DNA from: Candidatus Peregrinibacteria bacterium
GTDB lineage: Bacteria > Patescibacteriota > Gracilibacteria > UBA1369
DNA length: 64,000 nt
Reading direction: 5' to 3'
Assembly: GCA_020429235.1 (NCBI GenBank)
Contig: JAGQLQ010000025.1
Span: 310 to 64,309 of the forward strand
The position numbers and the translations under genes are program-made. The notes below the pieces were generated by a model. That model was not told the DNA's origin, made no database searches, and worked only from the letters and a program-made list of their open reading frames with translations. Positions 20,606-48,744 of the stretch are shown piece after piece (within the stretch, counting starts at the first letter, position 1; each line of letters begins with the position of its first letter).

Positions 20606-20701
20606 TCTTCATATTATACCATATAATAAAATTTGCGTCAATTTAGCACTTTTTGAATAAGCATTACAAACAATACCCCGTAATGAAAAACTGCTTTATC
20701 C

Positions 20702-21172
20702 TTAAGACAAGCGTGTTGTTCGCTGTGGCTCCATGAGCTTCTGGAGCTCTTTTCGGAAGGTTTCGATGTCTTTGAAATGGCGATAAACGGAAGCAAAACG
20801 GATGTAAGCAACCTCATCCAGCTCTTTGAGTTTTTCCATAATGCATTCACCAATGTAGTCGGCTTTGACCTCTTTGCCCTGTCCGGACCAGCGTTCTTCC
20901 AGTTGATTGAGAAGTTGTGTTACCTGCTCTTCCGTAACTGGACGTTTTTCACAGGCTTTCCAGATACCGGCTTCCAATTTTTGTCGATTATAGGCTTCCC
21001 GGGAGTTGTCTTTTTTGACCACAATAAAATTGCTCGTTTCCACGCGTTCAAATGTGGTAAAACGGAAATCGCACTCCTCGCATTTACGACGGCGGCGGAT
21101 TTCACGTGATTCGTTGGTGTCCCGTGAATCCAGAACCCGAGTGCTTGATTTTTTACATTTTGGACAGATCAT
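20702..21172 (-). CDS. nrdR: Transcriptional repressor NrdR
   Basis: MICPKCKKSSTRVLDSRD...RRRRKCEECDFRFTTFE is the NrdR zinc ribbon, followed by an ATP-cone. It overlaps dgt by 4 nt. Confidence 0.95.
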   Translation of the reverse strand: MICPKCKKSSTRVLDSRDTNESREIRRRRKCEECDFRFTTFERVETSNFIVVKKDNSREAYNRQKLEAGIWKACEKRPVTEEQVTQLLNQLEERWSGQGKEVKADYIGECIMEKLKELDEVAYIRFASVYRHFKDIETFRKELQKLMEPQRTTRLS

Positions 21173-22344
21173 GCAGTGATTTTTTGAAACTGTTCTTCGG
21201 CATAATGGTCAGTCATGCCGGCTATATAATCTTTTACCACGATTTCCAGCTGCTCGCCAAGTGCGATCGCATTTTGATAAGCCGATGGAAGCTCTTGTGG
21301 ATAGCTACGATAGTACTGAAAAAGTTTTTTGACAATGTTTTGGCCGTTTTCTATTTGCTTATGGACTTTTGGGTGGAAGTAAAACTTTTCACGAAGAAAT
21401 TGACGGAGCTCCTGAATGTGAGGATTAAGGGCAGGGCTGAAATTTACTATTTTTCCTTTATGAGAGCGCACTTTTTCAACTGAATCGATATTGTTTTTCT
21501 GTAGTTGTAACTCGGTTGTTTCCTGAAGATCCTGAATCATTCGGCTAATCATCCGACTAATCACTCTGCTCTGGAAGCGACGCTGGCTCTCGGGGTCCTG
21601 AGTTATGTTTTCTGATCCATATTCATTGAAGACGTGCTCTTTTGCTTCTGTCCAGAGTTTAAACTGGTCGAGTTGGTCTGCGGAAATAGTTTCACTGCGG
21701 AGGGCGTCATCGATGTCGTGATTGGTGTACGCGATTTCGTCGGCATGGTCAGCGACCTGGGTTTCCAAATGAGCGTAGGTTTGAAACTGGATTGAGGTTT
21801 TATACTTTTCGGGACTGTGCTTAATGAGTCCATCGACCACTTCAACAGAAAGGTTCAGTCCGTTGAACGTGGGGTAAATGTGCTCAAGAGCTTGAACAAT
21901 ACGGCGACTTTGCTCGTTGTGCTCAAAAGAAAGCCCATGCTCTCTCAGTGCTTCATCAAGGGCTTCTTCACCTCCATGACCAAAGGGTGGATGGCCTAAA
22001 TCGTGCGCGAGGGCGATGCATTCGGCCAGGTCTTCGTTGAGGCCGAGCCGGCGGGCGATGTCGCGGGCGATTTGTGCGACTTCGATTGAATGAGTCAGGC
22101 GATCACGATAGTGGTCGCCGTAGTAACTGACGAACACTTGCGTTTTAGCCTGGAGCCGGCGAAAAGCCCGTGAATGGATAATCCGATCACGATCCCTTTG
22201 AAAAGGAAGGCGATAGTCGTCGTGGTGTTCTGAATGGATGCGGCCCTGGGAATCTTTGCTGTGAGTGGCGTAGGGCGCCAGTTTTTGATCCTCTTCTGCC
22301 AGGAGTTGTTCTCGGGTTTTGAGCATGTGCACGGTAAAGTGCAC
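21169..22344 (-). CDS. dgt: dGTP triphosphohydrolase-like HD-domain protein
   Basis: HSRAFRRLQAKTQVF, RLTHSIEVAQIARDIA and AHDLGHPPFGHGGE are canonical dGTPase/HD motifs. Confidence 0.9.
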   Translation of the reverse strand: MHFTVHMLKTREQLLAEEDQKLAPYATHSKDSQGRIHSEHHDDYRLPFQRDRDRIIHSRAFRRLQAKTQVFVSYYGDHYRDRLTHSIEVAQIARDIARRLGLNEDLAECIALAHDLGHPPFGHGGEEALDEALREHGLSFEHNEQSRRIVQALEHIYPTFNGLNLSVEVVDGLIKHSPEKYKTSIQFQTYAHLETQVADHADEIAYTNHDIDDALRSETISADQLDQFKLWTEAKEHVFNEYGSENITQDPESQRRFQSRVISRMISRMIQDLQETTELQLQKNNIDSVEKVRSHKGKIVNFSPALNPHIQELRQFLREKFYFHPKVHKQIENGQNIVKKLFQYYRSYPQELPSAYQNAIALGEQLEIVVKDYIAGMTDHYAEEQFQKITA

Positions 22345-22380: not shown

Positions 22381-25300
22381 TTAGTCGGTTGCAATTCTTA
22401 ACCGACTTGGCTGATTGCCATTTATGGCTTTTTCCGCAGCTTCCACGTCCAGGGTCGCTTGAGCCCGGGCATTCACAACCTGTTTTTTTATCTTTTTGAA
22501 GGCATCTGATGTTGGCACCTGGTCAGCCGCATACATGACATCGAGAGTATCTTCTTTGACCTGATCATGAATTTCTTTCATTTCTTCGAGCTTTGATTTC
22601 GCTGTTTCTAAATCTTTTTCTTTTATAGCCTCCTCGATTTCTGTGCGGATTTTTCCAACCCTGTCAGCTTTTTTGAGAGCGGCATCACCAACTTCGGACA
22701 CAACTGACCTTAAGCCGATTTGCTCTGCTTCTTGAGCAGCTTTTTCTGCTTTTTCTGCAGCTTTTCTGGCTTGTTTATATCGATCCGATGTTTCTTTCAT
22801 GTGAACTCCTTTTAGTTCTCCAGCTTTTTCTGCTTTAAGTGCCGCTTTCGCATCGCTCATTGATGGCTGGAATGCTTCGGTGAGTTCAACACCTTTAAAC
22901 TCAGCAACACCTTTTGCAAGCGCTAAATCTGACATAACTTTTGCTGCATCCGCTGACATCTTTGCATCTTCAGCTTTTTGGCGAATTGATTCTACCTGTT
23001 TGGCCACATCAATTTTTTGCTCATTTTGGATAGCATCTTTGAGCTCTTGTAACTCTTTTTCTGCTCCTTTTTGCGCCTTTTCTGATATTTTTAATTCTTC
23101 CTTCACATTTTTGAGGAACGATCGTTTTTGTACTATTTCTTTCAATTTTCCGTATTGTTCGACTACTCTTTGCTTGGCACTTTTGGATTTTTCTCCAATT
23201 GTCTCTTTTGCACTGCTAATTTTTTGTCCTAATCTATCAGCCCTTTCCGATAAGTATTGGCGAATTTTCCCTGGCCCTTCTTTTGGAGGTGCAACGACGT
23301 CGGCGCTACTTGTTGTCATGATTTCGCCATTCGGCATTTTAACCTTCAGGCGAATGATTTTTCCTCCTTCTATTGGAATTTCTGCCAACCCAAGCACTTT
23401 CCCACTTTTAACTGAGTTTCCTTCTTTAAAGTTGACCCTTTCACCAGGGAAGAAATGCATTTTGTCTATTGTAATCATTTTATTTGGTTCTCCTGGTAGA
23501 CCTGTAGATTCAGTGATAATGTCTCCATAGCTTGTTTCAACTACTTTTCCATCTGGGGTTTTTATTTCCAAACGTAGTATTTTTCCTGCTTCCATTGGGA
23601 TTTCTTTTACACCTACAGCTATTCCACTCTTGATTTTGTTCCCCTGCTTGAAGATGATTTTTTCACCAGCCAAAAATTGTTTGTTGCCGATAGTTATGGT
23701 TGGTGTATGTTTTGTTCCTCCTATCATTTCGCCTCCAAGACGTCCACCACGAAGAGATATTACGACGGCTGCAGTATGGGCAAGCTCTTTCCAATCCCAA
23801 AATTTGGTATCGCGGGCACGCGCAGCCAGTTCTCCTTTTTTGTCACCAGTCCATTGGTTGTAGATGATAGCCATTTTCTGTTCCAGCTGAGACATTCCCT
23901 GGAGTGCTCCGATTTCTACGAATCCTTCTGCTACTTCGGCTCCGGCAGTTCCTAATTTTCCGCTCGCGCGGGCAGTACGGTTAAGGTATTGCAATTGTTG
24001 AAGTGGGTGACGGAGTCGTTGAAATCCAGTCGCTCCTTCTTCTACTGTGCGGACCATTCCTTCTGCTGTCCCCCGTGCGAGGCCTTGTACGCCTTTCATC
24101 ATGCCAAACGTTGCGGCAGTGTATCCGACTTGTCTCCATCCTTCTGCTGTTCCCAATATTCCTGCATTGCCATGCATAGTGGCTTGTGCCTGTACAAAAA
24201 GTGTTGCGTGAGCAATGGTCTTTCCGGCTGATGCAATACGTGGAACTTTGGCCGCATATTCTGATGCTCTGGCGACCATGTTGGCAACTTCCATAGCGCG
24301 TACACCCATTTGCCCAAGGCGGGCGGCGGCAAGAGCGGCCGCGGCATACGTTCCGGCACCCCAGGTCGCGAGTTCAATGATGGCGATTTCAACCACAAGC
24401 TGCGTAATCTCTTTGGCGATGATCGCATTTTCCTCGGTTAGATCAAAGGCTCCTTCTCCGTTCAAATCGTTGAGAAGTTCGAGTGCTTTTTTTTCATAGC
24501 CGCTGAAATTTGAAACTTCTTCATCGGTGAAGTGGCTTGCGTTAACGCCTTGTTCGTCGATGTAAGCTCGCCCTTTCAGAGCATCCATCATTTTTTCTTC
24601 AATAAATTCGTCCAGATTTGCGTACGATCCTCCGCCTGGTTTTGGAATGTTCTGTTCGGCAAAGTTGGACTCGTCGATTCCTTGTTCTAAAAGCTGGAGC
24701 TTGGCCTGTGCCTTAATTTGTTCACCATGATCTTCTATGAGTTCGCGGAATTCCGGCGTTGTGGTATCCACTTTTTCCATACGGAATTTCTTTTTCTCAT
24801 CTAATCTTTTTTGGAGAATCTGGATGCAAAGTGCGCGGGCTTCGTAGAACTGTCCGCTTATAAACATATGTCGTATTTTTTCGATCTGCATTTTTTCGAC
24901 GGCGCCAAGATTTTCAACATCTTTTGCGTTTCCACCTGGATTTTCATTGAGGAATGCGGCAAGGTCACCGTTTTCTGGGAAAATTTCTGATGATCGTTGC
25001 AGTATCCCGCCTTTGGACTGCTTTTCCATAAAGCTGCTGCGTTCTCCACCGAAGTATTCCGGCAAAGCTCCTCCGGCAATAACGCTTGGAATCATCCATG
25101 GCATTGATGCACCCGCGACTCCACCAATAATCCAGTTTGAATATTCACGAATACTTTCTGGAACAATGGTATCGTAGACACTGTCCCGAGTGTCTTTTGC
25201 CAAAGCCCAAATACCTTTTTCCCCAAGGCGCTCTTTTCCGCTCTGATACTCTTCAAAAAGGCGCGCTTCTTCCTGTCTATCGACAAAGAGTTCGTTGAGA

Positions 25301-26955
25301 TCAATTTTTCCCGGACCTTTGATGGTTGTGGGATGATCTTTCAAAACGTCTGTCATGACTGCTGTTTGGCCTTCCGGGATGTCGATAGACGTGATCTCTC
25401 CCTTCATGAGTTTGTCGTAGTAGTACTTCACCGGATTGGTGATGTCCTGGGTTTCTGCGTCGATTGGATATTGGTATCTAATAAGGAGACGGAGTCCTTC
25501 CATGACATGTTTTGCTGCCATGTAGACCTCTTCGTCGCTGTCCCACATATTGTCCAGGTCGTCCTTGATGTCCGCACGACGCTCTGCTTTGAGTTCAACA
25601 AAGTCTTCCATCTCTTTCATCATCATGTCGATAGACACGTTCATGCTGGCAATCATGTCAGTGGCGATGCTGTGGCGCATAGAAAGTTCCAGGTATTTCT
25701 TCTGCTCTTTTGCCATTTCCTGCAGGCTTTCCGGGAGTGAGTCGACATTGATGTCAGCGAGTAGAGACAGTGCTTCCCGCATTTTTTGTTGTGACTCATA
25801 CGCTTCCAGTTTTGGATAGCCGTTTTCGTCGAGTTGACCCATTTCGTAAAGGGCCAGCTGTGCCTGCCAGTATTTTTTCTCGTTTTCCGGTGAGTTTTCG
25901 ATCTTGTTTTTTAATCCTTCTAAAAGCTGCTCTTCCTGAGTGGCTTTTTGATTCTTGATGATCTCCTGCATCAACTGGAATCCTTTTTCTGGATCTTTTT
26001 CTCCAATGCTTTGAAAAACCCTTTCAAGAACCGGACCACGCGCCTGCTCGGGTAGACGATTGAGTCCTTCAACCATAGCGATGATGCCAAGTCTGGCATA
26101 GCTGTCGATGACGTTTGTCGACTCTTTGTCGAGGTCGATATTAATGGTTTCACCAAACTTGTTTGTGGTTGGAAGGATGTTTGAAGAGACGGTGTGGGCA
26201 ATCATGTAATCCCCGTTGACGATTTTCACGTCCGGGTAGTCTTCATCTGGTGTTTCAGCTTTTTTCCCTGGCTGTACTTCTGGCTTGTCGGGCTTTTCTC
26301 CTGGCTCTGGCTTTTTTTCTTTGCGGGAAAAAGTGCGAACGTATCGTTCATCTTTGTTTGTGACCGTTTCTCCAATACTTAAATGGAAAATGCACTCGCT
26401 TTTTTCCAGGGCCTCTGTAGAAGGGAAAGCGTCCATGGCACGCTGAAATGCGAGAACAAAGTTATAGATTCCAACGGAGCTAAAGAGTTGTTCTGATGTT
26501 TTTCCTTTTTCAAAAACAGATTTTTTTTGACTCCCTAGTTTTTTAAGCATGTCCAGATGCTGCTCGATCAGTTTCTGCGTGGCGGACGTGAAACGATCCT
26601 TTCCCTGCTCTTTTTCATAAATTTTGACCAGGAGTGCTGCCGCTTCGGACTTGTCTTTATAGACTTTTTCGGTGATCGCGCGCGCCCCGTATGGAGTGGC
26701 GTCCACGCTTCCCTCAACCACATTGAATTTTTTTTCTAGTTTTGCGCCATCATATTCGCCCAGTTCGTAGTGGTGATCTTCGCGAATGTCCACGTTTTCA
26801 ATCTGTTGCTTGAGCCGTTCACGCTTGGACTTACTGATAATTTTCTTTTTGCCAACCTCTTCAGCCTCTCTTTGAAGACGTTCGGCTTTTTCGATTGCCG
26901 TCTCATTGTGGGGCGGACGCTCCTGGTTTGGATTATGTTTTTCTGTTTCTCCCAT
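22381..26955 (-). CDS. Giant (1524 aa) hypothetical protein: coiled-coil N-terminus, central Gly/Ala-rich hydrophobic module, two tandem 74-aa beta-type repeats, coiled-coil C-terminus
   Basis: No signal peptide. The ends are K/E-rich helical sequence. The hydrophobic module maps to about 23715-24415 (ATWGAGTYAAAALAAARLG...). The start lies 1 nt after the stop of the upstream SLH protein. Confidence 0.85.
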   Translation of the reverse strand: MGETEKHNPNQERPPHNETAIEKAERLQREAEEVGKKKIISKSKRERLKQQIENVDIREDHHYELGEYDGAKLEKKFNVVEGSVDATPYGARAITEKVYKDKSEAAALLVKIYEKEQGKDRFTSATQKLIEQHLDMLKKLGSQKKSVFEKGKTSEQLFSSVGIYNFVLAFQRAMDAFPSTEALEKSECIFHLSIGETVTNKDERYVRTFSRKEKKPEPGEKPDKPEVQPGKKAETPDEDYPDVKIVNGDYMIAHTVSSNILPTTNKFGETINIDLDKESTNVIDSYARLGIIAMVEGLNRLPEQARGPVLERVFQSIGEKDPEKGFQLMQEIIKNQKATQEEQLLEGLKNKIENSPENEKKYWQAQLALYEMGQLDENGYPKLEAYESQQKMREALSLLADINVDSLPESLQEMAKEQKKYLELSMRHSIATDMIASMNVSIDMMMKEMEDFVELKAERRADIKDDLDNMWDSDEEVYMAAKHVMEGLRLLIRYQYPIDAETQDITNPVKYYYDKLMKGEITSIDIPEGQTAVMTDVLKDHPTTIKGPGKIDLNELFVDRQEEARLFEEYQSGKERLGEKGIWALAKDTRDSVYDTIVPESIREYSNWIIGGVAGASMPWMIPSVIAGGALPEYFGGERSSFMEKQSKGGILQRSSEIFPENGDLAAFLNENPGGNAKDVENLGAVEKMQIEKIRHMFISGQFYEARALCIQILQKRLDEKKKFRMEKVDTTTPEFRELIEDHGEQIKAQAKLQLLEQGIDESNFAEQNIPKPGGGSYANLDEFIEEKMMDALKGRAYIDEQGVNASHFTDEEVSNFSGYEKKALELLNDLNGEGAFDLTEENAIIAKEITQLVVEIAIIELATWGAGTYAAAALAAARLGQMGVRAMEVANMVARASEYAAKVPRIASAGKTIAHATLFVQAQATMHGNAGILGTAEGWRQVGYTAATFGMMKGVQGLARGTAEGMVRTVEEGATGFQRLRHPLQQLQYLNRTARASGKLGTAGAEVAEGFVEIGALQGMSQLEQKMAIIYNQWTGDKKGELAARARDTKFWDWKELAHTAAVVISLRGGRLGGEMIGGTKHTPTITIGNKQFLAGEKIIFKQGNKIKSGIAVGVKEIPMEAGKILRLEIKTPDGKVVETSYGDIITESTGLPGEPNKMITIDKMHFFPGERVNFKEGNSVKSGKVLGLAEIPIEGGKIIRLKVKMPNGEIMTTSSADVVAPPKEGPGKIRQYLSERADRLGQKISSAKETIGEKSKSAKQRVVEQYGKLKEIVQKRSFLKNVKEELKISEKAQKGAEKELQELKDAIQNEQKIDVAKQVESIRQKAEDAKMSADAAKVMSDLALAKGVAEFKGVELTEAFQPSMSDAKAALKAEKAGELKGVHMKETSDRYKQARKAAEKAEKAAQEAEQIGLRSVVSEVGDAALKKADRVGKIRTEIEEAIKEKDLETAKSKLEEMKEIHDQVKEDTLDVMYAADQVPTSDAFKKIKKQVVNARAQATLDVEAAEKAINGNQPSRLRIATD
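23266..23697 (-). repeat. Tandem duplication of a 74-aa domain inside the 1524-aa protein
   Basis: ITIGNKQFLAGEKIIFKQGNKIKSGIAVGVKEIPMEAGKILRLEIKTPDGKVVETS aligns with ITIDKMHFFPGERVNFKEGNSVKSGKVLGLAEIPIEGGKIIRLKVKMPNGEIMTTS at about 50% identity by hand, starting at aa 1087 and 1161. Confidence 0.85.
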
Positions 26956-26956
26956 G

Positions 26957-28981
26957 TTAGTTGGTTGCGGCGAGTTTTGCCATTTTTAAGAGTTCGGCTC
27001 GGGTGATTGGTCGGTTTGGTTCGAACCGATTGGCTGATATGCCGCTGATCCATCCGTTATCCCAGGCTGTGCGAACCCATGGTCCCTGCCATGCGTCTGT
27101 GATGTCGTTAAAAAGATTGTCCGGATGTCCGGCTCCACAGTTGGCTGTGTAGCAGCCCTGGTGTGCCGGGACCTTGAATGTTCGTGCAGTGAGAGCAGTC
27201 GCTTCTGCACGTGTTATGGCGAATTGCGGACCAAATTCGTTTGCCCCGTATCCTTCGACAATTCCTTCATCCCATGCCGCGCGAACCCATGGCCCCTGCC
27301 ATGTTGCGGTAATATCGTTGAAAAAGTTATTTGGATAACCGGCTCCACAGTTAGCGCTGTAGCAACCCTGGTGTGGACTGATTCCGGCCAGTGAAAGGAC
27401 AAGTTTTACAGCTTCTGCTCTGGAAATTGCCTGATCTGGACGGAAGGTCCCATCTTCGTAGCCCTGGATGAGGCAAGCATCGTAGGCTGATTTGATGATT
27501 GATTCAGCCCAGTGTCCGGCAATGTCACTTGGGTAGTCAACTCCTTCACATGCGCTTGTTTGCGTTGTGCTTTCTGTTTGTGTTGTTTCTGTCGGAGTCT
27601 GCTCCTGCTGTGGAGTTGGCTCTGGCTCTTCTACTTCCGGCTCCTTTGCCAGGACAGTAAACTCACGAATTGATAGATCTGGTAAGTATTGATTATTTGG
27701 TCTGGCTGCGACAACGAATGTGTATGTTCCCTCCGCAACCGGCTGATCGAATTTATCTTTTTGGGCATTCCAGGACAGATTAAATGGTGCTGCCTGTTTT
27801 GATGTTTTTGGCAGGATGGTTGTGATTGCTGCTGAAGTGTCGATTGTTTCGCTCGGCGTGAATGATGCCGGCATAATGTAAGCTTCCACAAGAGCGCTTT
27901 CGTTCAATCCACAAATTGCCAATGCGCTTTCGTTCTTTTCCTGAATGATTGGTTTTGGTGTAAAAGCGCAGGTGAGAATGTCTTTTGCCGGGAGTGTTCC
28001 GGTTTGTGTTTCTGTTGTCTCTTCTTCCGTGTCGACCAGTTCGGTAGTGGTTTCTGTTTCTTCTGTTGTTTGTGTTTCGGTTTCCTCTTCCTGGTTTTCG
28101 TTTTCTGGAACTGGATCTTCAAGTGTGATTGAGCAATCCTCTCCTTCAATTCCAGTGTCGAAATTTGGTCCTGTCAGAATGTTCACAACTGGAGTGAGCG
28201 TGGCCGATGTTGTGCCTGCCGGGTAGACAGTTTTTAAAACTTTTCCGTTTTCTGATTCCTGGCCAGGGGCTTTGCCATCTTCATCTAAAAAGAAGTAACT
28301 GGTTATCCCATTATGTGGCTGCTCTTCCATAAGCTTGGCTTCATCGACGAAGATGGTCCAGGTAACAATTTGTCCCGTGGTTCCAGGATTTGGAGATCCT
28401 GTACAAGAGATTGTGGCCTGTGATGCCGAATTTTCTGTTTGTGTCTGGTTTTCGGTGTTGGATGGTGTTGTTGAATTGATAGTGATTGAGCATGGTGTTC
28501 CGGCTATATCTTCATAATTGTCCGGACCAGTAAGAACGCTTACAATTGGTGTTACTGTTGCTGTCGTTTTACCGTTTGGATATGAAACAGTGAATGTTTT
28601 TTCTGAATTTGCTGTTCCTCCCGATGTATCCCCGCTCCAGAAATATGATTCTATATCAATGTATGGATCCTCCTCCTGCAGCATGGCTTCATTCACGACC
28701 ATTGTCCATGTGACAGATTGGTTTGGATCTGCCGGGTTTGGTGTACCGGAACAGGTTATTGGCCCGCCTGTGGATGGTGTTGTCTGGACCTGAATCTGGC
28801 TTGGCTGATTGGTCGTTACGTTTTGAAGTGATTGATTCAGCTGCGTTGAACTGATCAAACTTCCCTGGTACAAATTTCCTCCCAGATAGATAGCTGCAAT
28901 CGCGACTACTGTCCCTATGATTCCAAGTACAATGTAGAGTGCGATTGTGCGATTGGTTTTGATGAAATCGAATATATTCAT
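26957..28981 (-). CDS. Membrane-anchored surface protein with tandem Ig-like repeats, acidic Thr/Glu linkers and three C-terminal SLH domains
   Basis: N-terminal signal anchor (TIALYIVLGIIGTVVAIAAIYLGG). Two ~105-aa repeats start C(S/T)G(T/S)PNP...VTWT. SLH signatures include SDIAGHWAESIIKSAYDACLIQGYEDGTFRPDQAISRAEAVKLV, followed by two copies of HQGCYxANCGAG...NDITxxWQGPWVRxAWDxG...ITRAE. Confidence 0.85.
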   Translation of the reverse strand: MNIFDFIKTNRTIALYIVLGIIGTVVAIAAIYLGGNLYQGSLISSTQLNQSLQNVTTNQPSQIQVQTTPSTGGPITCSGTPNPADPNQSVTWTMVVNEAMLQEEDPYIDIESYFWSGDTSGGTANSEKTFTVSYPNGKTTATVTPIVSVLTGPDNYEDIAGTPCSITINSTTPSNTENQTQTENSASQATISCTGSPNPGTTGQIVTWTIFVDEAKLMEEQPHNGITSYFFLDEDGKAPGQESENGKVLKTVYPAGTTSATLTPVVNILTGPNFDTGIEGEDCSITLEDPVPENENQEEETETQTTEETETTTELVDTEEETTETQTGTLPAKDILTCAFTPKPIIQEKNESALAICGLNESALVEAYIMPASFTPSETIDTSAAITTILPKTSKQAAPFNLSWNAQKDKFDQPVAEGTYTFVVAARPNNQYLPDLSIREFTVLAKEPEVEEPEPTPQQEQTPTETTQTESTTQTSACEGVDYPSDIAGHWAESIIKSAYDACLIQGYEDGTFRPDQAISRAEAVKLVLSLAGISPHQGCYSANCGAGYPNNFFNDITATWQGPWVRAAWDEGIVEGYGANEFGPQFAITRAEATALTARTFKVPAHQGCYTANCGAGHPDNLFNDITDAWQGPWVRTAWDNGWISGISANRFEPNRPITRAELLKMAKLAATN

Positions 28982-29076
28982 TTTTGTTTTTGTGAACCCA
29001 AAAATATCTATTAATTATAACATATTTTGAGATTTTTTCAATTACTCCTTTAGGTGGTCGGATCTATAATGGTGTC

Positions 29077-29991
29077 ATGAAACTTGAAGATGCTATCGGC
29101 CAGTTTTTGCAGCATGCAGAAATTGGTCGCAACCAATCGGAAAAAACTATCGAGAATTATGGCCATTATTTGGGCAGATTTTTGGCTTGGACTGGAGACA
29201 TTTCTGTTGGATCGATCTCTTTAAAAAAAGTTCAGGAGTATCGGCTGTATTTGAATCGTTTGAAGGATGAAAAAGGGAAAAAACTGCTGATGATGAAGAC
29301 GCAGAATTATCATGTTATTGCGCTGCGGGCTTTCCTGAAGTGGTGCATGAAGAACGATATTGATACCTTGTCACCGGAAAAGATTGATTTGGGAAAAGTG
29401 GAGGACAGGACCGTTGAGTATTTGAGCCGGGAGGAACTGGAGCGGCTTTTTGATGCTGTGGATGCGGAGTCTGTTCGGGGACGGCGGGATCGGGCGATTC
29501 TGGAAACGCTCTATTCAACCGGTTTGCGTGTGAGTGAGTTGGTGAGTTTAAATTGTGATCAGGTGGATCTGGAACGACGGGAGTTTATGGTCCGAGGTAA
29601 GGGGAGAAAAGCACGGATTGTGTTTTTGTCCGATCGGGCTGCGGAAGCGATTGAGTCCTATTTGGCGATTCGGGATGACAATTTTGATCCTCTTTTTTTG
29701 AATTATCGGCGCGGAAAACAGAGCGAAAATATTACGATGGGGGAAAAGAGACGGCTGAGCACGGTGATGGTGCAGTATCTGGTTCGAAACTATGCTCGAA
29801 AGGCCGGGATTATTAAGAAAGTGACGCCGCACGTTTTGCGCCATTCCTTCGCGACTGAACTCCTGATTAATGGTGCGGACATTCGGAGTGTTCAGGAGAT
29901 GCTGGGACATGCATCGATTACGACTACTCAAATTTATACGCATCTTACGAATAAGCGCTTAAAGGAGGTTCATGAGAAATTTCATCAATAG
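29077..29991 (+). CDS. Tyrosine site-specific recombinase, XerC/XerD type
   Basis: Catalytic residues lie in ETLYSTGLRVSEL (R), HVLRHSFATELL (HxxR) and LGHASITTTQIYTH (H...Y). Confidence 0.9.
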   Translation: MKLEDAIGQFLQHAEIGRNQSEKTIENYGHYLGRFLAWTGDISVGSISLKKVQEYRLYLNRLKDEKGKKLLMMKTQNYHVIALRAFLKWCMKNDIDTLSPEKIDLGKVEDRTVEYLSREELERLFDAVDAESVRGRRDRAILETLYSTGLRVSELVSLNCDQVDLERREFMVRGKGRKARIVFLSDRAAEAIESYLAIRDDNFDPLFLNYRRGKQSENITMGEKRRLSTVMVQYLVRNYARKAGIIKKVTPHVLRHSFATELLINGADIRSVQEMLGHASITTTQIYTHLTNKRLKEVHEKFHQ

Positions 29992-30051
29992 GATTGTTGC
30001 TTTGCACGAACGGATTTTTGGACTATAGTTTGATTGTCATTATTTTGCCGC

Positions 30052-30729
30052 ATGATTGAGTTTTCACACGTTTCGAAAAAATATGGCCGGGCGAAAGTCC
30101 TGGATAAGATCAGCCTTACGATTAAAAAGGGCGAATTTGTAACTTTTATTGGTCCTTCCGGAGCAGGGAAATCGACTCTGGTTTATTCATTGATTGGGGC
30201 GGAACCGATTGCGAGTGGGAGTATTAAGATTGATGGATATGAGGTGAATCGGCTGCAAGGACGTCCGCTTCAGTATTTTCGGCGAAGAATTGGTGTAGTT
30301 TTTCAGGATTATAAATTGCTGGCGCAGAAGAATGTGTATGAAAATGTGGCCTTTGCGCTTGAAGTTTGCGGGTTTGATCGATCAGACATTAAACAAAGAG
30401 TGAAAGAGGTGTTGGAGATTGTGGGACTTTCGAAGAAACAGAAACAGTTTCCTCATCAGCTTTCTGGAGGGGAAAAACAGCGAACAGCAATTGCGCGTGC
30501 ACTGGTGCACTATCCAAGTTTGATTGTGGCAGATGAGCCGACTGGGAATTTGGATCCGGATACGGCTCAGGATATTATCGATCTCTTGATGAAGATTAAT
30601 GATAGCGGGACAACGATCCTTTTAACCACGCACAATACGCAGCTTGTGGATTCGATTCAGAAGAGAGTGGTGAAACTGGATGATGGAAAGATTGTGAGTG
30701 ATAAAAAATCTGCTGGATACCGTTCTTAA
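30052..30729 (+). CDS. ftsE: Cell-division ABC ATPase FtsE-like
   Basis: MIEFSHVSKKYG..., Walker A GPSGAGKST, ABC signature LSGGEKQR and Walker B LIVADEPTGNLD. The size (~225 aa) and N-terminus fit FtsE. The ATG at 30052 is preferred over the TTG at 30034. Confidence 0.75.
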   Translation: MIEFSHVSKKYGRAKVLDKISLTIKKGEFVTFIGPSGAGKSTLVYSLIGAEPIASGSIKIDGYEVNRLQGRPLQYFRRRIGVVFQDYKLLAQKNVYENVAFALEVCGFDRSDIKQRVKEVLEIVGLSKKQKQFPHQLSGGEKQRTAIARALVHYPSLIVADEPTGNLDPDTAQDIIDLLMKINDSGTTILLTTHNTQLVDSIQKRVVKLDDGKIVSDKKSAGYRS

Positions 30730-30738
30730 CGATTGGAA

Positions 30739-31803
30739 ATGGCTACGTACAAACAGTCTGGTGTGGATATTGCCGAGGGTGATAAGTGCAGTGCGTTGGC
30801 TTATGCTGCCGCGAAAAAGACGTTTGATGCGCGCAAGGGGCTTTTTGGTAAGCCGGTTATTCAGGATGGTGGTTTTAGTGGCGCTTTGGATTTTGGGGAT
30901 TTTTATTTGATTCAGAATTGTGATGGTGTTGGGTCAAAGATTGCTGTGGCGGATGCTTTGAAGAAGTATGATACGCTTGGCTATGATTTGTTGGCGATGG
31001 TGGTTGATGATGCGGTGTGTGTTGGGGCGGAGACCGTTTCTGTGACGAATACTGTTGATACTAATAAGGTGACTGCGGCCGCGATTGAGCCGATGATGAA
31101 AGGGCTTTTAAAGGCGTGTAAGGAACAAAAAGTAGTAATTCCTGGAGGTGAGATTGCTGAATTGCCGGATTTGATGAAAGGGAATTCGTGGAACTCGACC
31201 GCGGTGGGAATTGTTGAGAAAAAGAAGTTTATTACCGGAAAAGATGTGAAACCTGGCGACAAAATTATTGCTCTCAAGAGCAAAGGGTTCCGGTCAAATG
31301 GGTTTAGCCTTGTGCGATATATTTTAAAGAAAAAGTTTGGCGCAGGGTGGGAAAAGAAGAAGCGTGGAGTAAAAACATGGGGGGAAGTGGTTTTAACGCC
31401 TTCGCTGATTTATTCGGATGCTTTGCTTGATGTTCTTGGTCGATATAAAAAGCCACGGCAGGCAAAAGTAAAGGCACTTGCCCACGTGACTGGTGGTGGT
31501 ATTCCGGGAAACTTGAAGAGAGTTCTTGGAAAGTATGGAGCAACTTTAGATAACTTAATGACTCCTCATGCTTTTATGCTCGATTTGCAGGAGATGGGGA
31601 AAGTGAAAGATGCCGAGGCATATAAAACGTGGAATATGGGTATGGGAATGCTGGTTATCTCGAACGATATTGCCGTGTTTGAGAAAGCCATGAAGAAGCA
31701 TAAGATTCCAATGCAGGTTATTGGTGAAGTCACGAAGGAGTCCGGTATCCGACTGAAGAGTAAAGGACATTTTGAAGGTGGGAAGATGTTGCATTTTGGG
31801 TAG
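30739..31803 (+). CDS. purM: Phosphoribosylformylglycinamidine cyclo-ligase (AIR synthetase)
   Basis: YKQSGVDIAEGD..., DGVGSK and the overall PurM layout are present. ATG at 30739. Confidence 0.9.
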   Translation: MATYKQSGVDIAEGDKCSALAYAAAKKTFDARKGLFGKPVIQDGGFSGALDFGDFYLIQNCDGVGSKIAVADALKKYDTLGYDLLAMVVDDAVCVGAETVSVTNTVDTNKVTAAAIEPMMKGLLKACKEQKVVIPGGEIAELPDLMKGNSWNSTAVGIVEKKKFITGKDVKPGDKIIALKSKGFRSNGFSLVRYILKKKFGAGWEKKKRGVKTWGEVVLTPSLIYSDALLDVLGRYKKPRQAKVKALAHVTGGGIPGNLKRVLGKYGATLDNLMTPHAFMLDLQEMGKVKDAEAYKTWNMGMGMLVISNDIAVFEKAMKKHKIPMQVIGEVTKESGIRLKSKGHFEGGKMLHFG

Positions 31804-32224: not shown

Positions 32225-33067
32225 ATGGATACGCTTCAAGAAAAGGATTTCCCGTTGTTTTTGCGACAGATCACTCAAATTCCTGAAAAGATGTTTTTAC
32301 GTGGTGCGCCGCTACAGCATGATGCTGACTATGTGGCTATTGTGGGAACGCGTGTCCCCTCTCCATATGGGAGGCGGATGGCTTATGAAATTGCGAAGAG
32401 TTTGGTGGAATGTGGGGTTGTTGTCGTGAGTGGATTGGCTTTTGGTGTTGATTTTTTGGCACATAAAGCGGCTGTAGATTTGGGTAAGCCGACTGTTGCA
32501 TTTTTGGCTTCCGGGGTTGAGCGGGTAACACCAGCCAGCCATGCGGTGTTTGCAAAGGAAATTGTTGAATCCGGAGGTTCGATTCTTTCTGAATATGAAA
32601 GCTTTGATAGTGCTCACAAGTATCGTTTTCTGGAGAGGAATCGTCTTATTTCCGGTCTTTGCCGTGCAACGATTGTTGTTGAAGCCAAGGCAAAATCTGG
32701 GGCTTTAATTACGGCCCGGCATGCATTTGAGCAGGATCGGGAGGTGTATGCTTTGGTGGGAGATATTGATCGGGCGCAGTCCCGCGGCTGCCTGGATTTG
32801 GTTGAGCGTGATATGGCTAAGCCTATTACTTCTCTTGAGAGACTTTTACAGGATTTAGGGCTGCAAAAAAATCTTCCACAGGATGATCTGAGTCGTACTA
32901 TTGTGACAACTCTGGAGAATAAACTTATGAGCATGAATGATTTGTGCGCCGTTTTGAAGATGTCATCAGCAGAGGTTGCCAGTGCTCTCATGCAGCTTGA
33001 AATAGCTGGTGCTGTTGTCCGGAATCAGGGCAAGTGGATGAAAATGACTACACAGAAATTGCTGTGA
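32225..33067 (+). CDS. dprA: DNA-processing protein DprA (Smf)
   Basis: The Rossmann-like core reads IVGTRVPSPYGRRMAYEIAKSLVECGVVVVSGLAFGVDFLAHKAA and is followed by a C-terminal winged-helix-like tail. The start is ATG 32225 or GTG 32183. Confidence 0.9.
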   Translation: MDTLQEKDFPLFLRQITQIPEKMFLRGAPLQHDADYVAIVGTRVPSPYGRRMAYEIAKSLVECGVVVVSGLAFGVDFLAHKAAVDLGKPTVAFLASGVERVTPASHAVFAKEIVESGGSILSEYESFDSAHKYRFLERNRLISGLCRATIVVEAKAKSGALITARHAFEQDREVYALVGDIDRAQSRGCLDLVERDMAKPITSLERLLQDLGLQKNLPQDDLSRTIVTTLENKLMSMNDLCAVLKMSSAEVASALMQLEIAGAVVRNQGKWMKMTTQKLL

Positions 33068-34796
33068 CGCGGTGGACTTCTGCCAGACTGGTGAGACCCT
33101 GGATTACTTTGATAACTCCGTCTTCGTACATGGTCATCATCCCCTTCTTTCGGGCTGCTTCAATGAGCTTTGTGGAACTGGCTTTTTCAAGGATAAGCCG
33201 TTTGATTTCGTTGTCGACATCCAAAACCTCTACCACGGCAATACGACCTTTATATCCTGTGTGGCTGCAAACAGGACATCCGGGAGCCGTTGGGAGTTCA
33301 TCCGGTATTTCCAGCTCAAGACTTGGTTGCATATTTTTAATGAGGTCCAGCTTTTTTTGGAGCTCCTCTTTTTTGGCCGCCGAAATTTTTTCTGAATATG
33401 AACATGCCGGACAGAATTTTCGGACGAGGCGCTGAGCGATGATTGTGTCGAGTGCCGGCGCCACCATGAATGGTGGAAGGCCAATATTGATGAGTCGGGG
33501 AATAGCTTCGATTGCGCTGTTGGTGTGGAGAGTACTCAGAAGGACATGTCCGGTAAGGGCTGCCTGAGCAGCGGTTTCGGCTGTGTCCAGGTCACGAATT
33601 TCTCCAATCATCACGACGTCCGGATCCTGACGGAGAATGGCGCGCAGTCCATTTGCAAAGTCGTAGCCACGTTTTTCATTGATCTGACTTTGAGAAATCC
33701 CTTTTAGATGGTATTCAATTGGATCTTCAAGGGTGATGGTTTTGTTGCTTTCGTTGCTGAATTTTTCAAGAAGTTGGTAGAGCGTGGTGGTTTTACCAGA
33801 TCCGGTTGGACCGGTAATAAGGATCATTCCGTGTTTTATATTGAGCATCTGTCTGGTGTGAGCCAGCGCTTTCCCGGTGAATCCCATGTCTTCAAAGCTG
33901 GCCACATGGCGTTGGCTATCCAAAAGCCGGCATACAAATGTTTCTCCAAACTGGGTTGGCAAAACGGATACACGAAGATCCACTTTTCGCTCGTTGACCA
34001 AAAAACTGTACCGTCCATCTTGTGGCTCATTGGTAATGTTGAGCTTCATTTTACACTGGTACTTAATCTGGTTGGCAATGTTCGTGAAAGTGGTTTTGTC
34101 GATACGGAAAATACTATGAAGCAATCCATCAATACGAAAGCGCATTTCAACATCTTCTTCTTCCGGTTCAAAGTGGATATCTGATGCTCCGGTTTTGAGT
34201 GCGCCAATGTTAATGAGGTAAACGGCTTCTTCGGACGTGAGTGTTGGGAGTTTTGTTTCGAGTGACTGAAGGTCCTGAATCTCTTTTTCGTATGCTTTAA
34301 TTTTCTCTTCATCAAGCTTGGTTTCGATCTCTTTTTTGACCACGTACTGCTCAGATTCATAAAGTTTCATGGCTTCACGCAGACCATCGTCTGATGAAAG
34401 GTTTACATTGATGGCGTATCCTTGCTGCTTTAGCTGTTCAATTACTTTGAGTGTTTCTGGATTTTGAGGATCGGCAACAGCAACACGCACTTTTTTCCCA
34501 AGTTTGTAGAAGGGAAGAATGAGTGCTTTTTGCGCTATTTGTGGATCGACCATATGAAGCAGATCCGGGTTGATTGGCGTTGTTCCAATGTTGATGTATG
34601 ACATGCCAAGCTCCCGGGCCCGCTGAGCTGCTGCTTTTTCTTTGGCTTCACGGTTAATTTTCGCCAGTTTTTCTTCTGGAGAGACCGTTGGCTGTGTTTG
34701 ATGAACCGGTTCGGATGGTGCCGATGGAGCCTTTATCGCCTGCCCTTGTTGCGCTATTTGCTGCGATCCCTGATTGTTTTGTGTGTTGTCGTCCAT
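33048..34796 (-). CDS. pilB: Type IV pilus / type II secretion assembly ATPase (PilB/GspE family)
   Basis: Walker A GPTGSGKTTTLY, the Asp box and Walker B (MIGEIRD), the His box (LSTLHTN) and a tetracysteine motif (CPAC...CPVC). The ATG at 34796 (MDDNTQ...) is preferred. Confidence 0.9.
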   Translation of the reverse strand: MDDNTQNNQGSQQIAQQGQAIKAPSAPSEPVHQTQPTVSPEEKLAKINREAKEKAAAQRARELGMSYINIGTTPINPDLLHMVDPQIAQKALILPFYKLGKKVRVAVADPQNPETLKVIEQLKQQGYAINVNLSSDDGLREAMKLYESEQYVVKKEIETKLDEEKIKAYEKEIQDLQSLETKLPTLTSEEAVYLINIGALKTGASDIHFEPEEEDVEMRFRIDGLLHSIFRIDKTTFTNIANQIKYQCKMKLNITNEPQDGRYSFLVNERKVDLRVSVLPTQFGETFVCRLLDSQRHVASFEDMGFTGKALAHTRQMLNIKHGMILITGPTGSGKTTTLYQLLEKFSNESNKTITLEDPIEYHLKGISQSQINEKRGYDFANGLRAILRQDPDVVMIGEIRDLDTAETAAQAALTGHVLLSTLHTNSAIEAIPRLINIGLPPFMVAPALDTIIAQRLVRKFCPACSYSEKISAAKKEELQKKLDLIKNMQPSLELEIPDELPTAPGCPVCSHTGYKGRIAVVEVLDVDNEIKRLILEKASSTKLIEAARKKGMMTMYEDGVIKVIQGLTSLAEVHRVTAISV

Positions 34797-34944
34797 AGAC
34801 GCAGAAAGAGAACTATATCCGTTTATTTTACCATAAAATCGTCTTTTTTTTAAGGCTTTCTGTGAAGATTTTTCTGGATACTCAACCTGGAAAAAATGGC
34901 TCAAAAATGGTATAATTTCTGGATATTATTGAATTTAAATTTTG

Positions 34945-35277
34945 ATGTCTCAACGCGAAAAAAAAGAACAACTTCTCCGTGATGAGATGGAGCGATGCAT
35001 TTTGCTCCCTCCTGATGAGAAGAAATTCTGGATTGAAAATGCTGCGATTCTACCAAATGCAATGCTGGATGAAGTGTTCCGCATTGTTCAAGAAAAAAAT
35101 GAAACGGTGGATCGATACATTGAAGCGGCGCTTGCCGAGGATAAAGATCGAAAATATCTCTCGGAACTGAAAGCCAAGATTAAAAAAATGAAAACTGAAG
35201 CTTTTGCAATGGAGGAAAAGAGTGAGGAAGAGAGTGTTGAAGAAATCCTGGAACAACAACTTGAAGATCTTTCATGA
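34945..35277 (+). CDS. Small acidic helical protein, translationally coupled to the giant kinase gene
   Basis: 110 aa with an acidic C-terminus (EEKSEEESVEEILEQQLEDLS). Its stop overlaps the ATG of the next gene (ATGA at 35274-35277). Confidence 0.6.
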   Translation: MSQREKKEQLLRDEMERCILLPPDEKKFWIENAAILPNAMLDEVFRIVQEKNETVDRYIEAALAEDKDRKYLSELKAKIKKMKTEAFAMEEKSEEESVEEILEQQLEDLS

Positions 35278-38200
35278 CCGAAAAACTTGGCGGACAGATA
35301 GATGTGAAGCAACAAGAGATTGAAAGTCTTAAGGGGCCTGCAGCGGCGAAGACTGAAATTTCAAGGTATCGGAGTACCTATGTTAATGCTGTTGATTCAG
35401 GCCAAACAGAGATGTTAACGGCTGCGGGAAAATTGAAATCCCCTGAAGCCAAGGCCTATTTAAAAAAAGCTTCTGGAGAGATTGCCGGCCAGCTTGGATC
35501 CATGGCGGATCGGGGACGGGAGATTATTAAAGCTCATGAAGATACCAAAGAGGGAAAACCTGAAAAGGTTCCGAGTATGGACCAATTGAGTGGTGATCTG
35601 AGTAAAAAACTGGGGCAGCTTAAAAAATCTATCGATGCATTTAAAGTTTTGGAGGAGATTGAAAATGATGATCTTCCAAAGGTTGAAAAAGCAAATGGGA
35701 AATTGAATAGCAGTGAGGGTTCAAAAGATCCACTCACGATTTTTTCTGCAAAAGAGAAATTGTTGGGCGATCTGAATCGTTTAAGTCCAAAGTTTATAAG
35801 CACTCCTGGCTCGCGTGAATATTCAAAGAAGGTTGTTAAAAAATATCAGGATCTGGCCAAAAAAATTGGCGAGGAAAAAGATGAACTGGCACTTGGCCCT
35901 ACAGCCCGACATATTATTGCCAATGATTTCTTTAAGTCTGTGAGCACCTATGAAACGCTTGTAAAAGCTGTTGAGAGTAATCCTTCAATGGAAACTCTTC
36001 GGGCAGCTGAGGCGCAGGCGGAGAAAATTGATCCTGTAAAAGCCCATGCAGAAATTTTTGATGAAAAGGAAGAAGGTTCGTACGCCTACATCAATAACAT
36101 GTATAAACACCTTGAGACTGAATTTGAAAAATCCAAATCCAGTTATGAAGGTTTGAAAGATAGTTTTGAAGAGGCAGAGAAAGAGGCTTTGACCAAGGCT
36201 GCGGAAAAAATGATTGCCGATATTGCCTCTGCTGAAAAAGAGACTGTCGGACCTTTATGGGATAAATATGAACCTTTATCAAGGCGTACTGATTTAAATG
36301 GTAAGGAGCTGGAGGATTATGAGAAAAATGAAAAGGCGCTCCTTTCAGCTTATTTAACGCTCAAAATGACTGTTTCCCCTTTTGTGAATAAGGAAACACA
36401 GTACAAGCTTCAGGGAGATATTTATGGAAAAGTTCAGGCCAAGATTAAGGAGATTGATGATCGGGTTCGGCAGATTGAGGTGAATCGTCAGACACGAAAG
36501 AGTATGGCCTCACTTGGTGAGGTTGGGGCTAATGTTTTTAGTTACGTCACTTTTTTGGGAGAAGAAAAGGATGGCAAGATTTATACTTTCAACGCGGCCT
36601 ATGATGCTCTTTCAGATGAAAAAAAACAGGAGGTGCGTATGGCTGTTGAGAGCATTATTGCGAGAGACCAGGCTGAAGTGAAGGCTGAAACTCAAAAAGC
36701 TATGGTGGAACTTTCAAAATCTACCGGTAATTTTGATCAAATTTCTGAAGTCCTGGGAGAGAAATCTAAAAAGTATGCTGAAGGTTTACAGCTTTTGGCA
36801 TCCGGAAAACATACAGAAGCAGTGGCCGCTTTCGAAGCTTATGTTGGTCAAACGTTTTCTGCCGAAGAACGCGAACTGAACTCTGCTGCTCTTGCTGATG
36901 CGCAGGAAAAGATCCGACTTATAAAATATTCTGGAGATTTTTATGAAGGATTAAAACAGTATGGAGCTGGGGATATTAATGCAGCTTCGAAAAGCCTTGC
37001 CGGCTATGTTAAGTGGGCGGAAGGCAGCGGCGATAAAGAGCTCCACAAAGAACAGATTAATCAGGCCCGTGAAGTGCTTCATTTGATTGGTTTAACCAAG
37101 GTGAAACAGCTGGATAATCTGCTTGAAGACGTGAAATACTGGAAGAAAAAAGATCTTCAGGATCGATATGGTAAGAATGGTGAAAAAATCGATTTCAGAA
37201 TTACAGGGCCGGAAGTGGATGTGATTGTTGATGGTATTCGTGGGTTGAAATCCAAGGTTCAAAAAGGTGAACTGATTGATTATGATGAAGAGTTTGCCAA
37301 GTTGAAAGCCAGTGTTCATTTATATTTGCAGAAGAATGCTTTTGATCCGAAAAATAATGTAATTGATAAATTTTCGGAACTTTATGAAGGGATGAATTCG
37401 ACGGATCCAGAGGTCCGAAAAAAAACATGTATTAAATTTGCCAAAGAACTTCGTGATCTCCGGGGATATGATAAAGCCCGTGAGTATTTGGATAAAGCTC
37501 TCGCAGATGAGTACCGTGAGGCGGCCAAAGATGTGAGTCAGGAAAAAATTATGCGGGAAATGTTGGGCGATAAGATGATTATGGATAATGTCCGGAAAGC
37601 GGCATCTGCCTATCTGACTGAATTTAAAAAAGATAATCCTGATATTCCGGAAGATCAATTGAGGAAACAGGCTGAACAGATTGTTTTTAATATGTGGCTC
37701 CAAAAGCGTTATTCCCGTGAATTGCGACATCATATGACCGGGCAGGGGCTTGCTGATTCTACTGAAGCTTTAAGTCTTTATAATAATTGGTCGCCGTATG
37801 AAGAGGATAAAGATACTTCATGGTACAAACCGTGGAATTATGAGTACATGAGTGCGGAGGAATATGATCAGTTTAAAGATGCTGCCAAAGAGAATCTGGC
37901 GTTGACGATTGCGACACTCCCTATTGGATTTGGTGCGGGTGCCGTTGGTGCGCAGATTGGGAAAGTGGCTTTTCGTTCGTTGGCAACGCGTTTGTTAATA
38001 CGAACAGGTGCTGCTGGAGCCGAAGCAGCAATTCTTGCTATTGAGGAGGGTGGTGTGCAGGCAATCCGGTTTGGATCTCAGGCCTGGAAGGCTCTTACCC
38101 CGCAGATGCAACGTGCCATTATTCTGTCCCGAGTTGGAGCTGGTGCCTTAAGTGTCACGGTAGAAGGAACGCTTCTCTTGGGAGGAAGTACTGTTGCTGA

Positions 38201-48720: not shown

Positions 48721-48744
48721 GGCTCACACGTGTGAGCTTTTATT
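48721..48744 (+). terminator. Intrinsic terminator after tRNA-Ser: palindrome GGCTCACACGTGTGAGC followed by TTTTATT
   Basis: GC-rich inverted repeat followed by a T-tract on the + strand. It overlaps the stop codon (48740-48742) of the convergent 1151-aa gene. Confidence 0.7.

Follow-up and report, generated by a model that had tools for sequence, protein, structure and literature searches.

A giant protein family of Peregrinibacteria-like bacteria with a recurrent SLH-domain neighbour and a strain-variable cassette

Layout of the locus

The window analysed here is a stretch of 64,000 nucleotides (nt) from a Candidatus Peregrinibacteria contig (JAGQLQ010000025.1, positions 310 to 64,309), whose minus strand carries a gene for a 674-amino acid (aa) protein with S-layer homology (SLH) repeats (26957..28981) and, directly downstream, an open reading frame (ORF) of 1524 aa (22381..26955). 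The latter is called here the 1524-aa giant, and a second very large ORF of the same window the 2083-aa kinase giant. On the evidence of profile searches, the 1524-aa giant belongs to a previously unannotated family of about 30 clusters in Peregrinibacteria-like bacteria of the candidate phyla radiation (CPR). All positions follow the numbering of the window; L numbers denote related loci fetched for comparison and P numbers related proteins.

An earlier interpretation of the letters alone, referred to below as the sequence-only reading, had described the two ORFs as separated by a single nucleotide, and the ORF map reproduces both exactly. The junction (26955..26959, minus strand) reads ...AAC TAA C ATG GGA..., that is, the TAA stop of the SLH gene, one nucleotide and the ATG of the giant. 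Inspection of the sequence found no Shine-Dalgarno-like purine run at this junction, and a 1-nt spacing without such a signal suggests that the SLH protein and the 1524-aa giant may be translationally coupled. A dgt-like HD phosphohydrolase gene (21169..22344, minus strand) follows 36 nt 3' of the giant and is overlapped by 4 nt by nrdR (20702..21172, minus strand), the probable last gene of the unit, so that the four minus-strand genes are spaced by 1, 36 and -4 nt.

A promoter-like site, TTGAAA-16-TGnTATAAT, matching the consensus at 11 of 12 positions and recognised from that match only, lies 33 nt upstream of the SLH gene start (29014..29041, minus strand), and the next equally strong minus-strand sigma-70-like site in the consensus scan is found at 20613-20641, ahead of ykuD. 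The minus-strand scan lists no terminator-like site between the SLH gene, the giant, dgt and nrdR; the sole one that it lists is weak and falls within the giant ORF (26336-26350). The tight gaps, the single strong upstream promoter-like site and the lack of intergenic terminator-like sites are together consistent with one SLH-giant-dgt-nrdR transcription unit. In three metatranscriptomes of a study in which the organism is present, the locus is represented by a single contig of 222 nt (27001-27222), which lies inside the SLH gene and ends 45 nt short of the junction.

Since TGA terminates 4 of the 32 large ORFs of the window, the reading under table 11, the standard code, is appropriate even though the record is labelled Candidatus Gracilibacteria. 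Code 25, used by Gracilibacteria, was considered and rejected on the same count, long ORFs being intact under table 11. The organism, which is present in activated-sludge and wastewater metagenomes and whose closest genome among species representatives is a metagenome-assembled genome of Candidatus Peregrinibacteria, is a standard-code Peregrinibacteria-like CPR bacterium.

The SLH protein

From its N-terminus, the 674-aa protein consists of a short basic tail, an N-terminal anchor, Cys-bracketed repeats, a third beta domain, acidic T/E linkers and a terminal SLH triplet. The anchor, IALYIVLGIIGTVVAIAAI (28889..28945, minus strand; residues 13-31), reaches a Kyte-Doolittle value of 2.72, and the two Cys-bracketed repeats, each of about 100 aa, occupy residues ~73-170 and ~190-288. 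The three SLH repeats (26960..27556, minus strand; residues ~476-674) match PF00395 with an E-value of 2.5e-26 and 91.8 bits against a cutoff of 20.8, and they include conserved Cys pairs within the pattern HQGCY[ST]ANCGAG...WQGPWVR. With both SLH repeats and an N-terminal hydrophobic segment, the protein is predicted to be a classical exported envelope protein, and it may be tethered at both ends, by the membrane anchor and by the wall repeats.

The Cys-pair motif, HQGCY(S/T)ANCGAG, sits between SLH repeats and recurs in the SLH protein of locus L012; these cysteines might serve in metal binding or form disulfides, either of which would be unusual for SLH domains. In a contig from run X1, an in-frame insertion of 27 nt at position 27565 falls in an acidic T/E linker and represents low-complexity length variation.

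The giant family and its genomic neighbours

A HMMER search with residues 1-1085 of the 1524-aa giant against 1.84 billion representative proteins found 80 relatives, of which about 30 are full-length giants, 1200-2955 aa long. The giant itself has no match in Pfam, NCBIfam, PADLOC or PHROGs, and queries of the PDB sequences with its full length, its beta repeats (described below) and the family profile gave nothing significant; at E<=0.001, the Pfam matches among 29 family members amount to one Metallophos and one GrpE. A search for related loci with a 7-sequence alignment recovered one true orthologue, in L007, together with two proteins that share the N-terminal domain only.

The giant, or the SLH-giant pair, is adjoined by a xerC-like recombinase gene, always in divergent orientation, in all eight surveyed relatives that are at least 27% identical. 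In the window this neighbour is a xerC/D-like tyrosine recombinase (29077..29991, plus strand), and here (29077-31803) as in close loci the conserved order is xerC-like gene, FtsE-like ABC ATPase, usually an AIR-synthase-related protein, and dprA where the contig reaches it. The three most distant members (L015-L017) are without the xerC neighbour. The 1524-type giant behaves as a core syntenic gene of its clade. One of the distant members, at the locus of P0023 (L016), lies near a T4SS-pilin/TrbC-like gene followed by unannotated ORFs of 864, 141 and more than 969 aa.

Predicted structure and the conserved hydrophobic element

The statement of the sequence-only reading that the giant lacks a signal peptide is borne out by hydropathy: a Kyte-Doolittle scan found neither an N-terminal hydrophobic segment nor a Sec signal peptide, the protein starting with MGETEKHNPNQERPPHNE. 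Its only two hydrophobic peaks, both marginal at 1.5-1.6, are at residues 609-627 and 844-862. In contrast, an N-terminal hydrophobic segment is present in a 3132-aa surface giant of the window with DUF11 and SLH domains, which suggests that this organism uses Sec signals for its true surface giants.

Residues 1-1085 were modelled with AlphaFold2 from a 63-sequence alignment, a 3-sequence alignment having given an unusable model (mean predicted local distance difference test score, pLDDT, 43.6). The resulting model has a mean pLDDT of 80, a predicted TM-score of 0.65 and 550 residues at or above 90. Foldseek returned no credible match for it in the PDB (best E-value 0.063, TM-score 0.09) or among the predicted viral structures of BFVD (best E-value 0.022).

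The model begins with an alpha/beta N-domain (26323..26793, minus strand; residues 55-211; pLDDT above 90) bearing the motifs VEGSVDATPY, GIYNFVLxFQR and ERYVRTF, followed by a disordered P/E/K-rich linker (26143..26313, minus strand; residues 215-271; pLDDT below 50) whose length varies among relatives. An all-alpha body (24451..26133, minus strand; residues 275-835), with a small four-stranded sheet at 523-552, holds the most conserved positions of the family (D472, D474, Y496, P497, N507, P508, E563, Y570, G573 and E705-A706-R707); its hydrophobic loop at 608-628 is of low model confidence. The body leads into a conserved hydrophobic element (24301..24435, minus strand), which comprises a 29-residue helix (841-869), a TWGAG turn and an Ala-rich helix ending at Arg879, and then into Gly/Ala-rich amphipathic helices (23725..24300, minus strand; residues 886-1077). 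Beyond the modelled part, two tandem beta repeats are followed by a K/E/A-rich helical tail (22384..23259, minus strand; residues 1233-1524; 28% K+E), a candidate coiled coil from its composition only, which is partly conserved in P0002 and P0003 (VAEHKGVxFTEAFKP). Both the tandem repeats and the K/E-rich tail had been described in the sequence-only reading and were recovered here.

Of the hydrophobic elements, the helix at about 845-880 alone is conserved family-wide, being found in 25 of 29 members. Across these 29, Glu856 is near-invariant, and Glu861 and Arg879 are invariant in the 7 closest; the family motif, ...ENAxxAKEITQxVVEIxIIELxTWGAGT...AAR, is all that the very distant P0080 shares. 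The conserved segment has a mean Kyte-Doolittle value of 1.62 (1.5-2.4 in individual members) and contains the two conserved glutamates. We regard the 841-885 element as a candidate membrane hairpin or anchor. It is flanked by acidic residues before the helix and by Arg/Lys after it, which, under the positive-inside rule, argues that its C-terminal side would be cytoplasmic; a single N-in/C-out span would accordingly be a poorer fit than a helix-turn-helix hairpin or burial of the helix in a bundle.

The N-domain was also found in dozens of further proteins (about 40) on the hit list, none with an informative Pfam domain (L008, L009; P0038-P0085), either by itself or inside a longer sequence, for instance at positions ~600-900 of proteins of ~1100 aa. 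Its carriers include proteins of complete Peregrinibacteria and Peribacteria chromosomes, and we take it to be a putative mobile domain without a Pfam match.

Recurrence of the SLH partner in related loci

The sequence-only reading had paired the giant with a wall-bound partner, a claim that the comparison of related loci supports in part. The SLH gene precedes the giant in L001 and L002, where the giant is 60% identical to that of the window (a gap of 3 nt was read in L001), and in L007, where it is 92% identical overall and the gap is at most 3 nt. The order is reversed in L003, whose giant is 40% identical and leads the pair with an extended -10-like element of its own; 30 nt later an SLH orthologue follows that is cut by the contig end and matches both N-terminal repeats with an E-value of 1e-21. 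In L012, where the giant is 32% identical, a partner of 1050 aa, whose C-terminal SLH triplet matches that of the window protein (E-value 5e-64), lies 9 nt downstream. A short tail and a transmembrane anchor are common to all adjacent SLH partners; directly after the anchor, the motif L(Y/F)QG(S/G)L is present in the window, L001, L003 and L007, and L012 has MLQGN only, so that the core L(Y/F)QG is shared by all but this last. No SLH partner was found beside the giant in L010, where the order is giant-dgt-nrdR-ykuD, in L014, in L015-L017 and probably in L011. On these comparisons, the association appears to be recurrent but facultative, the giant being a conserved core gene and the SLH protein an accessory in some lineages.

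The recurrence of the association and its survival of a change in gene order argue for a functional link. The competing view is that adjacency is incidental, the giant being a cytoplasmic or membrane housekeeping scaffold that resides beside xerC and next to which an unrelated SLH gene was inserted in some lineages. It draws on the fact that the invariant neighbour, in the same eight relatives, is xerC (with the FtsE-like ABC ATPase) and not the SLH gene, on the six partnerless loci (that of L011 being probable), of which L010 runs from the giant straight into dgt-nrdR-ykuD, and on the short gaps found everywhere in these compact genomes, in a window where SLH proteins are abundant. Yet an orthologous SLH protein flanks giants that are only 32-40% identical, on either side; the shared transmembrane anchor and L(Y/F)QG motif, together with Cys-bracketed repeats or a Cys-containing SLH triplet, mark it as the same orthologue, and spacings of 1, 3 and 9 nt that lack a Shine-Dalgarno sequence point to coupled translation. 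We consider incidental adjacency unlikely on balance, while granting it serious weight.

A variable C-terminus and a cassette replaced between close strains

The family diverges past residue ~1085 of the 1524-aa giant. Two beta repeats (residues ~1087-1150 and 1161-1224; 44% identical, E-value 4e-22) followed by the K/E/A tail are found in the window, P0002 and L007; P0008 has one beta repeat, and P0003 has none and shares part of the tail. At the same position, P0011 carries TPR and a metallophosphoesterase domain (35 bits against a cutoff of 21.5), and a weak GT2-like region occurs in other family members. The repeat region matches BPL_C, an SH3-like domain, with 22.8 bits (cutoff 21; E-value 8.6e-5) over only ~21 residues, and DUF5776 weakly (E-value 0.027); the fold of the repeats may be SH3-like. 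SH3-like repeats commonly serve as wall or ligand binders.

The comparison with L007 locates a replaceable cassette of ~435 bp that contains the two beta repeats (23306..23740, minus strand). At the protein level, the two giants are 96-100% identical in each 50-residue bin except at residues ~1075-1225, where identity falls to ~25%. At the DNA level, 97% identity with L007 extends up to position 23741 and resumes at 23305, with no nucleotide similarity detectable between these borders (11216-11656 in L007). The L007 cassette resembles that of the more distant L001, at 72% aa identity, and the window allele is 34-38% identical to either. Neither the rest of the window nor the fetched loci contain a donor copy. 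The window allele was confirmed in four independent metagenomes, and an assembly chimera was rejected as the source of the difference, since an independent run yielded a contig that crosses both borders at 100% identity and the allele recurs in three more runs. Conservation resumes behind the cassette, at 99% over the terminal 290 residues, which makes the variable segment an internal one. The SLH protein, which has no variable segment, is 98% identical between the window and L007 strains while the cassettes are ~25% identical; variation in the cassette is thus not matched by variation in the SLH partner.

A swap of this kind between strains that are 97% identical is typical of exposed recognition modules, and it gives substance to a second alternative, in which the giant would be an exported surface fibre or adhesin that uses residues 841-869 as a single-pass anchor or leaves the cell by non-classical export, with its C-terminal half outside, held by the SLH protein, and with the cassette as an antigenically variable tip facing hosts or phages. 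A wall-bound SLH partner and SH3-like repeats that could bind wall or ligand, as the weak BPL_C and DUF5776 matches would allow, agree with this picture, as does the literature on giant envelope proteins of CPR bacteria (PMC8080830, PMC4736985, PMC11809585). However, the giant has no signal peptide and places 840 well-folded residues before its only candidate anchor, its flanking charges put the C-terminal side in the cytoplasm under the positive-inside rule, its relatives bear TPR with metallophosphoesterase or a weak GT2-like region where the cassette sits, and the cassette varies independently of the SLH protein. A surface fibre thus seems to us rather unlikely.

A tentative model for the SLH-giant pair

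The reading that we tentatively favour, with less than even confidence, is that the 1524-aa giant is a Sec-independent, membrane-tethered protein which, with the membrane- and wall-anchored SLH protein, forms an envelope module equipped with a strain-variable cassette. In this model, the giant would be made in the cytoplasm without a Sec signal, its large N-terminal body would stay there, and the conserved 841-885 hairpin with the amphipathic helices behind it would tether it to the cytoplasmic membrane. The SLH protein, probably coupled to it in translation, would span from membrane to wall, and through the pair a large scaffold in the cytoplasm or at the membrane might be connected with the cell wall or S-layer. 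The exchangeable beta cassette and the variable C-terminal modules would supply binding or enzymatic functions specific to the strain.

Several observations weigh against this model. The giant stands without an SLH neighbour at the six loci named above, and tight spacing alone is weak evidence for a link, because CPR genomes are compact and the giant lies as close to dgt. Membrane association is marginal: with peaks of 1.5-1.6 and two glutamates, the conserved helix could instead be buried in a soluble bundle. The near-identity of the SLH proteins of the window and L007 beside such divergent cassettes gives no sign that the two evolve together. Hypervariable cassettes are more typical of exposed surfaces and would fit an extracellular C-terminal half. 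Finally, the single 222-nt RNA contig, confined to the SLH gene, is uninformative on co-transcription.

Comparison with the 2083-aa kinase giant

The sequence-only reading had noted a compositional likeness between the central modules of the two giants of the window and had proposed that they are paralogous carriers with different C-terminal payloads. The likeness is real: residues ~841-1077 of the 1524-aa giant (about 23725-24435) contain 31% Gly+Ala, as against 17.5% in the whole protein, and the equivalent module of the 2083-aa giant (residues 875-1080) contains 32%. The notion of different payloads is also supported, as a pattern of architecture inside each of the two families; in the 1524 family it takes the form of the variable modules past residue ~1085. 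Paralogy itself was not borne out. BLASTP between the two proteins gave nothing significant (best E-value 0.017, in a K/E-rich N-terminal stretch), and hhalign of the two family profiles returned a probability of 4%, again over a short K/E-rich N-terminal stretch, and below 1% for the modules alone. A 29-sequence profile (effective number of sequences 4.35) aligned to the N-terminal region of the 2083 family with 5% probability and not collinearly. None of the 80 relatives retrieved by hidden Markov model from the 1.84 billion proteins belongs to the 2083 family, and the core model of the 1524 family gave only sub-threshold matches to it, though roughly co-located.

The conserved motifs at the hydrophobic helix are likewise distinct, the 2083 family having SWYKPW (SWYxPW)...EE(Y/W)DxF...TLPIGFGAG and the 1524 family E-I-x-x-I-E...T-x-G-x-G...R. 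Accessory genes differ as well: the 2083 type is accompanied by an upstream ORF of ~110 aa, a variable downstream ORF and a PilB-like ATPase, the 1524 type by xerC and sometimes the SLH gene. The case for a common carrier ancestor would rest on shared design, since both giants have ~850-1100 conserved, mostly helical N-terminal residues, both have a Gly+Ala module of ~31-32% that opens with a hydrophobic helix and then a GxG turn, and both families show variable C-termini that include enzymes. Set against the failure of every alignment and against differing motifs, accessory genes and genomic neighbours, this makes descent of the two giants from one ancestor very improbable. Their likeness is compositional and architectural, that is, analogous; homology is not supported, and any relationship would have to lie beyond the reach of these searches.

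The unit of the 2083-aa giant lies on the plus strand (34942-42128) and is adjoined by a gene for a divergent PilB/T2SSE ATPase (33048..34904). It starts with the acidic ORF of ~110 aa (34942..35277), which overlaps the giant start by ATGA, is 57-75% identical in close relatives and 29% in L011, and precedes every 2083-type giant (L004, L005, L010, L011). The downstream ORF (41535..42128) diverges together with the C-terminus of the giant and is 34% identical over 74 aa to that of L005, a toxin/immunity-like pattern for the two. P0005, a partial record, is 90% identical to the 2083-aa giant of the window over the region covered. Its C-terminal ~630 aa are highly similar (~85%, an estimate from the alignment) to the C-terminus of another, otherwise very divergent giant (L004:15116-20077), which has its own upstream ORF of ~107 aa; over the whole 1053-aa alignment the two are 59% identical. 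Exchange of C-terminal payloads thus apparently occurs in the 2083 family. In P0006 and P0007, HD-like motifs appear in the place of the kinase.

A broader proposal would draw both families together without requiring their homology: Peregrinibacteria might carry at least two families of Sec-independent "carrier" giants, each with a helical body of ~1,100 residues that ends in a hydrophobic, Gly/Ala-rich helix bundle inserted into a membrane, their own or that of a host, and that presents or delivers exchangeable kinase, HD-like, metallophosphoesterase or SH3-like modules. For the 1524-aa family, the SLH protein would be a docking or export partner across the cell wall, and the cassette swap would be diversification, driven by hosts or phages, of the apparatus with which an episymbiont makes contact. 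We judge this improbable.

Relation to known systems

CPR/Patescibacteria are believed to live on the surface of other cells, but next to nothing is known of the molecules from which their contact and envelope structures are made. The locus described here defines a family of giants without Pfam domains that combines an orphan predicted fold, one conserved candidate anchor, a recurrent wall-anchored partner and a swapped cassette of recognition type. If the pair does bridge cytoplasm, membrane and wall, it would offer a handle on the organisation of the envelope or host interface of ultra-small bacteria. If the SLH link is incidental, the analysis still separates two look-alike giant families and flags the 2083-aa family as polymorphic-effector-like.

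Giant envelope proteins with a presumed role in attachment to the host have been reported from CPR episymbionts (PMC8080830, PMC4736985), and the large exoproteins of Patescibacteria have been suggested to undergo replacement of segments and antigenic variation (PMC11809585). Examples are the giants of Vampirococcus lugosii (PMC8080830), the large Cys-rich extracellular proteins of Peribacteria (PMC4736985) and the exoproteins of Patescibacterium danicum, which exceed 5000 aa and have FhaB domains (PMC11809585). Like these, the 1524-aa giant comes from the same or a related lineage, is very large, has no function by annotation and would be associated with the envelope, and their strain-level variation or reshuffling parallels the cassette swap. 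Unlike them, with their signal peptides or many transmembrane helices and their adhesion domains (DUF11, PKD, FhaB, integrin), it has no signal peptide, Pfam domain or fold match, and its conserved N-terminal body is probably cytoplasmic. It belongs to no described family and would be placed among the giant envelope proteins of CPR bacteria, a class that is only loosely defined.

The giant resembles polymorphic toxins and effectors (CdiA, Rhs, LXG, prePAAR/TM effectors, umbrella toxins) in its conserved N-terminal body with exchangeable C-terminal modules, an enzyme in one member included, in segment replacement between near-identical strains and in the hydrophobic, Gly-rich helical element that precedes the variable part. 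It differs from them in having no toxin domain detectable in Pfam, NCBIfam, PADLOC, PHROG and repeat-region searches and no trafficking domain (PAAR, VENN, LXG, TPS or Rhs) in Pfam and NCBIfam, in being followed by the conserved dgt-nrdR pair and not by a variable immunity-like gene, and in the conservation of its end beyond the cassette. The 2083-aa family next to it is a much better fit to this pattern.

Two further comparisons concern the partner and the anchor. With SLH S-layer and S-layer-associated proteins of monoderms, the SLH protein shares three canonical C-terminal SLH repeats and exported beta-rich repeats, and it departs from them in apparently keeping an N-terminal anchor, in the Cys pairs of its SLH repeats and in its probable translational coupling to a signal-less giant; it is otherwise an ordinary SLH-family protein. 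With the TolA/TonB tethers, the giant shares a candidate hydrophobic anchor with conserved charged residues and a long K/E/A-rich helical segment; its profile gives a TolA match at the level of composition only (E-value 0.71), with no homology. Unlike in these tethers, its candidate anchor lies 840 residues from the N-terminus, and no TolQR/ExbBD-like partners are present in the locus.

Other envelope proteins of the window

Beside the 674-aa protein, two more SLH-bearing envelope proteins are encoded in the window, both on the minus strand: the 3132-aa giant with DUF11 and DUF7619 and its N-terminal hydrophobic segment (7047-16445), and a protein of 1151 aa (48740-52195) that combines GEVED and SLH with a C-terminal sortase domain.

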